This document shows positions 9,492 to 9,924 of a stretch of 10,865 bases of DNA, in pieces. A program made the position numbers and the translations under genes. This DNA comes from a virus (lineage: Duplodnaviria > Heunggongvirae > Uroviricota > Caudoviricetes), in IMG/VR virus record IMGVR_UViG_2660238548_000023; one strand, written 5' to 3'. Within the stretch, counting starts at the first letter, position 1; each line of letters begins with the position of its first letter. The notes beneath the pieces are model-generated. The model searched no databases. It was not told where the DNA came from and saw nothing but the letters and a program-made list of their open reading frames with translations.

Positions 9492-9519
9492 TTGCTCAAT
9501 TATCGCGATTCGCTATAAT
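9492..9519 (+). promoter_or_regulatory. sigma70-like promoter driving the hairpin array
   Basis: -35 ttgctc (9492-9497), 16-bp spacer containing the palindrome atcgcgat, perfect -10 tataat (9514-9519). Predicted start around 9526, at the base of the first stem-loop. Confidence 0.4.
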
Positions 9520-9523
9520 CACC

Positions 9524-9924
9524 ACCGAAAGGTCGTTGATGGTGTTCGCCTCGGGCAACTGGAGCCCGACAGCATGAAGCCAGCCAGCGGCTTTTCGGTA
9601 CTCATTTTGATGTGTACTTGTCACACACATCGGGATGAGTGAACGACGAAAACATCACGGTGATTTCGTCATGCCGCGATAAGAATGCGCCTCTTTGGGC
9701 AATTGAAGCCCTCTGTACAGCGGGTTATCGCGGCAAAGTTGTGATAAAAACGCGCCTCTTTGGGCAACTGGAGCCCACTGTAAAGCGGCTTATCACAGCT
9801 GGCGGTAACGGGCGCTCATCTCCGGGCAACTGAAGCCCTCTGTACAGAGACCCGTTACGGCTGACCCTGAATGATTTCTGCCACGTGCAACTGGAGCACC
9901 CGGAGAAATCTTTCAGGGTTTTTT
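9524..9924 (+). ncRNA. candidate structured RNA: five tandem stem-loops with conserved core GGGCAAYTGRAGCCC
   Basis: Unit A stem 9524-9532 / 9591-9599; B 9673-9682 / 9725-9734 (10 bp perfect); C 9737-9747 / 9790-9800; D 9801-9812 / 9851-9862; E 9865-9878 / 9905-9918, followed by T6 at 9919-9924. The stems differ in sequence but stay complementary, while each loop carries a conserved core (9553-9567, 9697-9711, 9762-9776, 9824-9838; E has gcaactggagcac at 9886-9898). Confidence 0.4.
9865..9924 (+). terminator. long-stem intrinsic terminator (unit E plus U-tract)
   Basis: ccctgaa (9865-9871) pairs with ttcaggg (9912-9918), and gatttc (9873-9878) pairs with gaaatc (9905-9910), giving a roughly 13-bp interrupted stem, followed by tttttt (9919-9924). 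It abuts the stop of the convergent minus-strand gene. Confidence 0.4.

Follow-up and report, generated by a model that had tools for sequence, protein, structure and literature searches.

The 10,865-nt stretch of caudoviricete DNA considered here (IMG/VR record IMGVR_UViG_2660238548_000023; below, the window, meaning the whole stretch) contains a tandem array of stable hairpins, preceded by a promoter-like site and closed by a U-tract (positions 9,492 to 9,925; Table 1), and the question that this locus raises is what kind of element the array is and on what it acts. That the array is a real and strongly non-random feature, as was originally predicted from the sequence alone, is confirmed. 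From the comparisons described below, it is best regarded as a multimerised copy, borne by a putative satellite, of an antisense RNA gene that is widespread among phages. With respect to function, we give roughly an even chance to the best reading, namely that the locus produces a ~400-nt RNA made of tandem copies of an antisense RNA of the helper phage, which would either pair with the mRNA of a giant helper gene or mimic the regulator of that gene, possibly aided by a FinO-domain protein.

The array consists of seven hairpins, five of which (units A to E) carry the core GGGCAAYTGRAGCCC, and all five loops read AAYUGRA. Units A to D have an apical GGGC-AAYUGRA-GCCC on a long stem of variable sequence, and the core of unit E is the variant GTGCAACTGGAGCAC, which as RNA reads GUGC-AACUGGA-GCAC. 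The units are hairpins of 56-76 nt that are 67-84% alike and have different stems; the 10.9-kb window contains five instances of the motif GCAAYTGRAGC, all of them within the array and on the plus strand. The original prediction described five consecutive hairpins ending in a U-tract, of which the five core units and the terminator stand, but two additional hairpins that lack the core, located between units A and B, had been overlooked. The tight packing reported for units B to E was correct (gaps of 1, 1 and 2 nt), the reported spacing of 65 nt applies to one interval only (the others are 62 and 61 nt, and that from A to B is 144 nt), and the palindrome that was said to follow the core often, CTGTACAG, follows it in only two of the five units. 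Neither at the gathering thresholds nor at E values up to 10 did a search of Rfam yield any family match for the array.

The array is framed by a single promoter-like site before unit A and a single U-run after unit E. The site had been described as near-consensus, and indeed the -10 hexamer (TATAAT), 16 nt away from TTGCTC as stated, is perfect, but the -35 hexamer matches the consensus at only three of six positions, which explains why the promoter was not called in a consensus promoter scan of the window. The entire site is invariant across eight diverged arrays, and the transcript is predicted to start near G9527. Unit E together with the U-tract looks like an intrinsic terminator, and its TTTTTTATTGCC is kept in all arrays.

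Homologous arrays are present in 116 of 5,426 complete Escherichia coli genomes, in every case in the chromosome. Folded as a 407-nt RNA, the plus strand of the array reaches -183.8 kcal/mol (z = -8.9), compared with -168.9 kcal/mol (z = -7.0) for the minus strand, the z scores of single hairpins ranging from -2.1 to -6.5. The alignment of eight arrays from different islands (seven distinct sequences, mean column identity of ~92%) was analysed for covariation, with 500 shuffles and with sliding of the pairing partner by 1-3 columns as controls. The structure comprises 133 pairs in 13 helices, in which 97.8% of the cells of the seven distinct orthologous arrays are paired. The pairs changed on both sides number 10, compared with 5.9 ± 1.5 in the shuffles (3 of 500 reach 10), whereas neither the 20 double-changed cells nor the covariation score of 0.121 (0.086 in the shuffles) is reached in any of the 500; the slid controls give at most 3 double-changed pairs. 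Among the orthologues, compensatory pairs are seen in helix 2 (extra hairpin 2; two pairs) and in helix 13 (unit E; two pairs, along with five that vary on one side only), and for extra hairpin 3, which is invariant, the alignment speaks neither for nor against the hairpin. In unit C, the apical G-C pair is replaced by A-U in four of nine arrays (GGGC/GCCC to GAGC/GCUC), and in units A and D the apical helix changes from GGGC/GCCC to UGGC/GCCA; pairing is kept in each case. The invariant promoter hexamers and the terminator frame the array in all the aligned islands.

The origin of the units became apparent from a BLAST comparison of the array with phage genomes, which revealed a single ~62-nt site, with 87-89% identity, in 175 records of Shiga toxin (Stx) phages. 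The parts of the array that match this site are units B and C, unit B being 87-89% identical to it. Every time, the site lies within a giant LPD5/LPD38 gene and, every time, on the antisense strand. This gene, which encodes a virion "polyvalent" protein of 2,000-3,800 aa, is found in Stx phages (Sepvirinae) and in many uncultured phages. In phage POCJ13, the 2,793-aa protein contains LPD5, LPD1, MuF_C (aa 1750-1837) and LPD38 domains, and the site falls near aa 1851, just past MuF_C; it is thus inside a late structural gene, distant from the replication and terminase genes. In the classification of Iyer et al. (PMC5512222), MuF-C is the predicted RNase domain PBECR. A tblastn search of cultured phages detected this MuF-C subfamily in Stx-type phages only.

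The core GGGCAAYTGRAGCCC is the reverse complement of GGG CTY CAR TTG CCC, which encodes Gly-Leu-Gln-Leu-Pro (GLQLP), Y and R being synonymous third positions. Alleles of the phage site have different stems, all of them paired: v1 (GCCGCGATAAG...GGGTTATCGCGGC), v1b (with the outer stem of v1 and a different interior; found in 26 viral contigs), v2 (ACCCTGACGG...CCATCAGGGT) and v3 (AGCCGTTGATGG...CCATTCAGCGGCT, in phage PhiR5_2). The stem changes between these alleles are non-synonymous on both coding arms. Elsewhere in the giant gene of Stx phages there is a second very stable conserved hairpin, CTCCCGGTAACGG...CGCCGGGAG (~-31 to -35 kcal/mol; L037 ~9296-9365, L002 ~6590-6660, L036 ~9299). Among the small RNAs already described from Stx phages and enteropathogenic E. 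coli, two kinds were considered and rejected as belonging to different loci: the Pas RNAs, which are encoded in lambdoid prophage regions, mostly near sialate esterase, holin and lysozyme genes, and 24B_1, which comes from the intergenic sequence that separates lom from vb_24B_43 and lacks an intrinsic terminator.

This relationship qualifies two elements of the original prediction. The unit spacing was taken to exclude selection on a peptide, and this is true in the island, but in phages the family evolved under the constraint of coding on the opposite strand; similarly, the conserved loop core is present but is not an independent feature, being the reverse complement of the phage GLQLP codons. 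In the island, the protein-coding reading was rejected because no open reading frame (ORF) spans the array: there is no minus-strand ORF of at least 40 aa across 9640-9920, and the units are free-standing copies. The sole match of a 64-aa plus-strand ORF is an unannotated PHROG, and we take this ORF to be a spurious call opposite the phage gene. The apical swaps in units A, C and D would abolish Gly-Leu-Gln-Leu-Pro on the opposite strand; given that these changes keep the pair and break the peptide, selection in the island acts on pairing. Selection of the array for secondary structure on the plus strand, which had been proposed originally, is supported by the folding, by the proportion of paired cells and by compensatory changes beyond those in the controls, and so is the non-coding character of the array in the island.

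The phage site itself appears to be a small antisense RNA gene, with its own promoter, hairpin and U-run. When metagenome and viral contigs were scanned for the core, widely differing phages, in contigs of 28-68% GC, proved to share one architecture: a variable stem of 8-14 bp, an apical GGGC-AAUUGGA-GCCC and a T-run. Of 104 viral sites amenable to analysis, 90 have their core on the strand opposite an in-phase open frame, which is 300 aa or longer and reaches 3,833 aa at most. A sigma-70 promoter, TTGACA-17-TATNNT, with the exact 17-nt spacing and at a fixed distance, is present on the antisense strand in 22 of 26 curated sites (the TTGACA is exact in 13 of these), its -10 ending 27-36 nt ahead of the core, and promoter scores of at least 10/12 are attained in half of the sites as opposed to 1.5% of control windows. 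The corresponding promoter in Stx phages, TTGCGA-17-TATTTT, was missed in a simple promoter scan and surfaced only through the comparison with distant phages. Delimited by the predicted start and the U-run, the RNAs are 70-83 nt long and comprise 29 distinct sequences, with one hairpin and a U-run each; those that were folded with shuffle controls each form one long hairpin (z = -2.4 to -6.5). Folding favours the RNA-sense over the mRNA-sense strand at 26 of 26 sites (by 6.4 kcal/mol on average) and at 81 of 90 sites, which is what G.U pairs on the functional strand should produce.

These features bear on the possibility that the hairpins function in DNA, either as a single-stranded DNA (ssDNA) or cruciform signal for priming or origin function, or as a copy of the packaging (pac) site that the helper uses for headful terminase packaging. 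Genes for a single-stranded DNA-binding protein (SSB) and a primase belong to the same module as the array, the island, devoid of capsid and terminase genes, has to rely on borrowed packaging, and folding energies cannot separate RNA from ssDNA; moreover, the Stx phage 933W reportedly carries out generalized transduction and is probably terminally redundant (PMC3752737), which fits a pac site. All the same, the fixed-distance sigma-70 promoter and the U-run of the phage homologues are features of transcription units, which makes ssDNA priming unlikely, and the strand bias caused by G.U pairs speaks against recognition of double-stranded DNA. Furthermore, the same element is found in phages of very different types and GC content. 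The pac-site variant was rejected given the promoter and terminator features and the distance from the terminase gene, and we consider a DNA-level function of either kind to be very improbable.

The antisense RNA gene also occurs in forms that resemble intermediate stages of multiplication or are detached from the giant gene. In one viral contig (L315, IMGVR_UViG_3300045988_136501; 7900-8110), a 2,818-aa giant gene contains an in-frame 66-nt tandem duplication of the hairpin, with one promoter, two hairpins and one terminator, i.e., a natural two-unit version of the island array. Four contigs from the human gut (L052, L040, L050 and L089) have two copies of the RNA gene 374 nt apart, each copy with its own TTGACA-17 promoter and U-run; in L052 (reverse strand, 820-940 and 1195-1310), one copy is antisense within a 316-aa open frame encoding GLQLP and the other is intergenic, past the stop codon of that frame. 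In another contig (L251, Ga0466703_155747; 1248-3494), a stand-alone 248-aa MuF_C protein gene with an embedded RNA gene is located ~0.8 kb upstream of a gene of the AbiEii toxin family, which hints at small modules of MuF_C and RNA in defence or toxin-antitoxin neighbourhoods.

A covariance model that was built from 22 phage RNAs and run on the window finds units A to D, on the plus strand only, and nothing else (E = 5e-8 for A, 2e-6 for B, 7e-5 for C and 0.002 for D). Unit A is 93.5% identical over 62 nt to the v3 allele of PhiR5_2, with matches at 64-67 of 73 positions; the homology extends as a 69-nt block from GAA, 7-8 nt past the -10 in both, to the first Ts of the U-run. This block coincides with the predicted RNA and is, therefore, the RNA itself, the promoters of unit A and of v3 not being homologous. 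The stem of unit B (GCCGCGATAA/TTATCGCGGC) is identical to that of v1 and v1b, and compared with v1 this unit has a perfect run of 23 nt complementary to the phage mRNA, complementarity of the array to the giant-gene mRNA being inherent in its homology to an antisense element. In one island (L133), unit B is 100% identical to v1b over 62 nt, and the seemingly compensatory differences in unit B between islands are the same as those between v1 and v1b. Units A and B are 86-100% identical to particular phage alleles, and the interior of unit D resembles v2 (87.5% identity over 40 nt to phages POCJ13 and 75/02 Stx). The units are, by these similarities, diverged copies of the phage-encoded antisense small-RNA gene.

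Copies of this kind could, in principle, be non-functional debris, that is, decaying fragments of the giant gene left by repeated recombination, illegitimate or Red-type, between island and helper. Each unit is still open on the minus strand as a 19-20-codon piece of the phage linker, and the window itself is a mosaic. Decay, however, is difficult to reconcile with homology blocks that are cut exactly at the RNA boundaries, with the tandem arrangement between one promoter and one terminator, with compensatory changes that keep the pairing, including changes in three units that break the coding and retain the pairs, and with the conservation of the array in 116 E. coli genomes. We regard this explanation as scarcely credible.

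Conservation of the phage element is not confined to the giant genes. The homologues identified by protein similarity all contain both MuF_C and GLQLP, including stand-alone proteins of 212-302 aa, and in the three for which the DNA was fetched, from genomes of 44-68% GC, GLQLP is encoded by identical 15 nt; hence it is as nucleic acid that the apical stem-loop is conserved. Three recurrent peptide features correspond to parts of the RNA gene read on the other strand: (D)LVK to the -35 hexamer, GLQLP to the apical loop and NKxK to the U-run. Searches of Rfam with the window and 11 phage loci detected no family for the phage element, the only hits being one tRNA and, outside the array, two C4 RNAs of the window. 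The phage RNA gene is absent from Rfam 15, and no description of it was found in the literature searched; literature searches for the core sequence, for GLQLP, for MuF/PBECR with antisense and for satellites with ProQ returned nothing relevant.

The invariance of the apical stem-loop brings up the main rival of an antisense function, namely an RNA decoy or antitoxin: the hairpin would be a ligand or pseudo-substrate of the adjoining MuF-C/PBECR RNase domain, with which it would make up a pair akin to a toxin and antitoxin, and five copies would titrate or neutralise the RNase when it is injected or expressed by a phage, in the way of type III antitoxin RNAs. Complementarity alone requires no nucleotide invariance that includes synonymous positions across phages of 28-68% GC, the RNA gene co-occurs with MuF_C in every protein-seeded homologue, the small stand-alone proteins included, and the succession of promoter, tandem RNA repeats and terminator resembles ToxI-type arrays. 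Conversely, the units are long and have different stems, instead of being short, near-identical repeats, and they track specific phage alleles with up to 100% identity, for which a protein that recognises the loop would have no need. In addition, the strand of the array carries no RNase gene after it, the next ORF being convergent and missing in islands L010, L034 and L133, and the RNase activity of the MuF-C domain is a prediction (PMC5512222). On balance, we consider the decoy unlikely, if by no means negligible.

The antisense reading, to which we return, can be formulated as follows. The array would be transcribed as a ~400-nt non-coding RNA, from near G9527 to the U-tract after unit E, that folds into seven coaxial hairpins. 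The AAYUGRA loops, each of which contains the YUNR motif, a U-turn known from the recognition loops of antisense RNAs, would form kissing contacts with the complementary loop in the giant-gene mRNA of the helper, and the units whose stems match the infecting allele would extend the kissing into a duplex. Such pairing would reduce production of the giant protein, or just of the portion that follows MuF-C, resulting in interference with helper virions or in protection of the cell. The neighbouring FinO-domain protein could stabilise the RNA through its terminal hairpin and speed up the pairing. FinO acts in this manner on FinP and traJ, and FinO-domain proteins bind to hairpins that are 3'-terminal and followed by a tail. 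The different stems within one array would then represent a repertoire against different helper alleles.

Several observations weigh against this scheme. The strict conservation of GGGCAAUUGGAGCCC hints at a protein partner instead of, or besides, base pairing because a cis-antisense RNA needs no invariant loop sequence. For units C, D and E, the phage alleles sampled include no close match (~75% identity). The -35 hexamer of the array is weak (three of six), and the promoter was not called in the scan. The role of the FinO-domain protein as a chaperone is plausible from synteny alone, given that Stx phages keep the RNA gene and encode no relative of this protein. The satellite status of the island and the assignment of Stx phages as its helper derive, respectively, from gene content and from shared sequences, and so are both putative.

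The genes that surround the array (Table 1) form a conserved module: SSB, ProQ/FinO-domain protein, PerC-family regulator and array are found together in 9 of 9 arrays, and the type of primase and the downstream ORF vary. For the SSB genes next to the other eight arrays, identity is 92-100% in seven cases and 70% in L035, where the gene is marked as a pseudogene in RefSeq. The presence of a ProQ/FinO-domain gene close to the array was correctly predicted and applies to all nine arrays; it is not, however, immediately upstream, this place being occupied by the PerC-family gene, with ProQ/FinO one gene further up. The ProQ/FinO-domain protein matches the solved structures of ProQ (5NB9), RocC (7RGU) and FinO (1DVO), and it is a candidate chaperone for the array RNA. 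No relative of it was found among species-representative genomes, which suggests that the island is strain-specific. The convergent ORF on the other side of the array is kept in some islands and is deleted or truncated in L010, L034 and L133; a toxin-antitoxin pair made up of this ORF and the array was rejected because the ORF is missing from these three.

Table 1. Features of the array and of the adjacent genes in the window (positions on the 10,865-nt stretch)
Feature	Position	Strand	Details
D5/P4-type primase	5961-7784		
SSB gene	8276..8725	+	First gene of the conserved module; Pfam PF00436, E = 2e-16
ProQ/FinO-domain protein gene, 155 aa	8742..9209	+	Pfam PF04352, E = 2e-24
PerC-family regulator gene	9169..9471	+	Directly upstream of the array, position conserved; Pfam PF06069, E = 3e-28
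Promoter-like site, sigma-70 type	9492..9519	+	-35 TTGCTC 9492-9497, 16-nt spacer, -10 TATAAT 9514-9519; read from the sequence
Unit A hairpin	9524..9599	+	Long hairpin, apical GGGC-AACUGGA-GCCC; -39.9 kcal/mol, z = -5.1
Extra hairpin 2	9600..9640	+	Without core motif; 16-bp stem; z = -5.1
Extra hairpin 3	9645..9670	+	Without core motif; z = -2.1; invariant in all arrays
Unit B hairpin	9672..9735	+	Stem GCCGCGATAA/TTATCGCGGC
Unit C hairpin	9737..9800	+	Stem GTGATAA/TTATCAC; z = -4.6
Unit D hairpin	9802..9861	+	Stem GGTAACGGG/CCCGTTACC; z = -2.6
Unit E hairpin and U-tract	9864..9925	+	Hairpin 9864-9919, then TTTTTATT; -28.2 kcal/mol, z = -6.5
Convergent ORF, 128 aa	9923-10309	-	Without match in Pfam or PHROG; stop codon adjoins the terminator of the array

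The position of the array within this module could also suggest a cis-acting 3' element, a chain of hairpins that terminates the primase-SSB-ProQ-PerC mRNA and stabilises it as a barrier to 3' exonucleases, the likeness to the phage site being an accident of recombination. Stable 3' hairpins protect mRNAs, no terminator separates PerC from the array, and the array closes the plus-strand gene block. For such protection, however, one hairpin would suffice; the array has its own invariant -10 and -35 directly upstream, five units retain the phage-type apical loop with the YUNR motif, and the units are exchanged with, or track, phage alleles. We judge a 3' element quite improbable.

The island that harbours the array was delineated in the E. 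coli strain STEC2018-553 (L001), where it spans ~14 kb between yicC and dinD. The annotated genes include those for an integrase, Rha, an antirepressor, Ash, two Icd-like proteins, primase, SSB, ProQ/FinO, PerC paralogues and a Q antiterminator; there are no capsid or terminase genes. Shiga-toxin strains of serotypes O157:H7, O145, O111 and O103 are among the matches listed for the array. By its gene content, the island is apparently a phage satellite, a parasite of Stx-type phages. The Q antiterminator gene (14429-14821 in L001) has ~90% DNA identity, over 379 nt, to Q of 933W and other Stx phages and would be a second helper-derived segment; it could couple the island to late transcription of the Stx phage and hence to toxin expression. 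In the Ash/Icd-like region, there are two full-length matches to the C4 antisense RNA family (RF01695; 70 and 73 bits; 4471-4558 and 4952-5039, plus strand), which suggests a P1/P4-type RNA immunity module present in two copies in one island.

The sequence of the window is mosaic, with contributions from two island lineages. The primase (267 aa covered), SSB, ProQ and PerC proteins are 100% identical to those of the island in O145:H28 strain RM13514 (L032), and for the array units the match is with STEC2018-553. The integrase encoded at 1-1254 shares only 30% identity with that of the STEC2018-553 island, so that the present island probably resides at a different attachment site. Three PerC-family genes surround the array, the one that precedes it and two others past the convergent ORF (10394-10696 and 10700-10865, plus strand). 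PerC/Pch proteins activate virulence genes of the locus of enterocyte effacement in enteropathogenic and enterohaemorrhagic E. coli (EHEC), and through these genes the island may also influence virulence regulation of the host.

Among the known systems, the closest analogy appears to be with FinP/FinO of F-like plasmids and with related systems based on FinO-domain proteins (RocC/RocR, FopA/Inc, ProQ): a stem-loop RNA that ends in a terminator hairpin, complementarity to stem-loops of a target mRNA with loops suited to kissing contacts, and a FinO-domain protein encoded by the same mobile element. The array, however, shows no sequence or Rfam similarity to FinP or to curated FinO-ligand RNAs, has seven hairpins where FinP has two, and its putative target is on another replicon, the helper phage, rather than in cis. 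With ToxI of the type III system ToxIN, the array shares the promoter, the tandem RNA repeats and the terminator, as well as the occurrence of multiple copies in the host element and of a single related copy in a phage ("pseudo-ToxI"), along with an association with an RNase domain that in the case of MuF-C is a prediction. The differences are that ToxI repeats are 34-36 nt long and near-identical, compared with units of 56-76 nt with different stems; that no toxin gene adjoins the array on the same strand and no Rfam match was obtained; and that the phage copy of the array element is antisense inside a coding gene.

The phage element is, in turn, similar to antisense RNAs encoded in cis to toxin or structural genes (RatA/txpA and Sib/Ibs of type I systems, and OOP of lambda) in that it would be a short, constitutively promoted antisense RNA, consisting of one hairpin and a U-run, whose entire length is complementary to the mRNA of a gene for which a nuclease domain is predicted. 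Unlike these RNAs, it is located in the middle of an 8-kb virion-protein gene rather than across from a small toxin ORF, it has an apical loop that does not vary even between very distant phages, and a second mobile element has copied and multimerised it. At most of the phage sites, the hairpin is antisense to a long ORF and has its own promoter and U-run, unlike in the island with its single promoter and terminator. The C4 RNA of P1 and the CI RNA of P4 (RF01695) likewise are small structured antisense RNAs of phages and satellites but belong to a different family, with a different structure and place, and the array has no RF01695 match. Similarly to P4, phage-inducible chromosomal islands (PICI) and PICI-like elements (PLE), the element considered here is a capsid-less island with an integrase and a helper-derived Q gene that likely acts on a late or virion gene of the helper. 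To our knowledge, the interference factors of such satellites are proteins, whereas the candidate factor of this island is an RNA array; no description of an RNA array copied from a helper regulatory RNA was found in the literature searched.

Combining the two lines of evidence, it may be proposed that tailed phages of widely differing hosts (28-68% GC) carry, after the MuF-C domain of giant injected or virion proteins, an antisense RNA gene that is represented neither in Rfam 15 nor in the literature searched and, jointly, that satellites of Stx phages have strung captured alleles of this gene into a single transcript, a heritable, sequence-specific, non-CRISPR "memory array" directed against helpers, by antisense pairing or by mimicry of the regulator. 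This combined proposal is tentative, and we would sooner expect it to fail in one of its parts than to hold in full. If it is true, the array would be the first case of a satellite turning a regulatory RNA of its helper into a multi-allele weapon or sensor, and an RNA layer would be added to the conflicts between satellites and helpers. A widespread antisense RNA would thereby come to light in those large genes of temperate phages that are least understood, also in the Shiga-toxin phages of EHEC, where control of virion or injected proteins bears on the spread of toxin phages, and a FinO-domain protein of a mobile element would gain a concrete candidate ligand. More generally, a "conserved protein motif" such as GLQLP can simply mirror an RNA gene located on the opposite strand, which matters for the annotation of polyvalent proteins.

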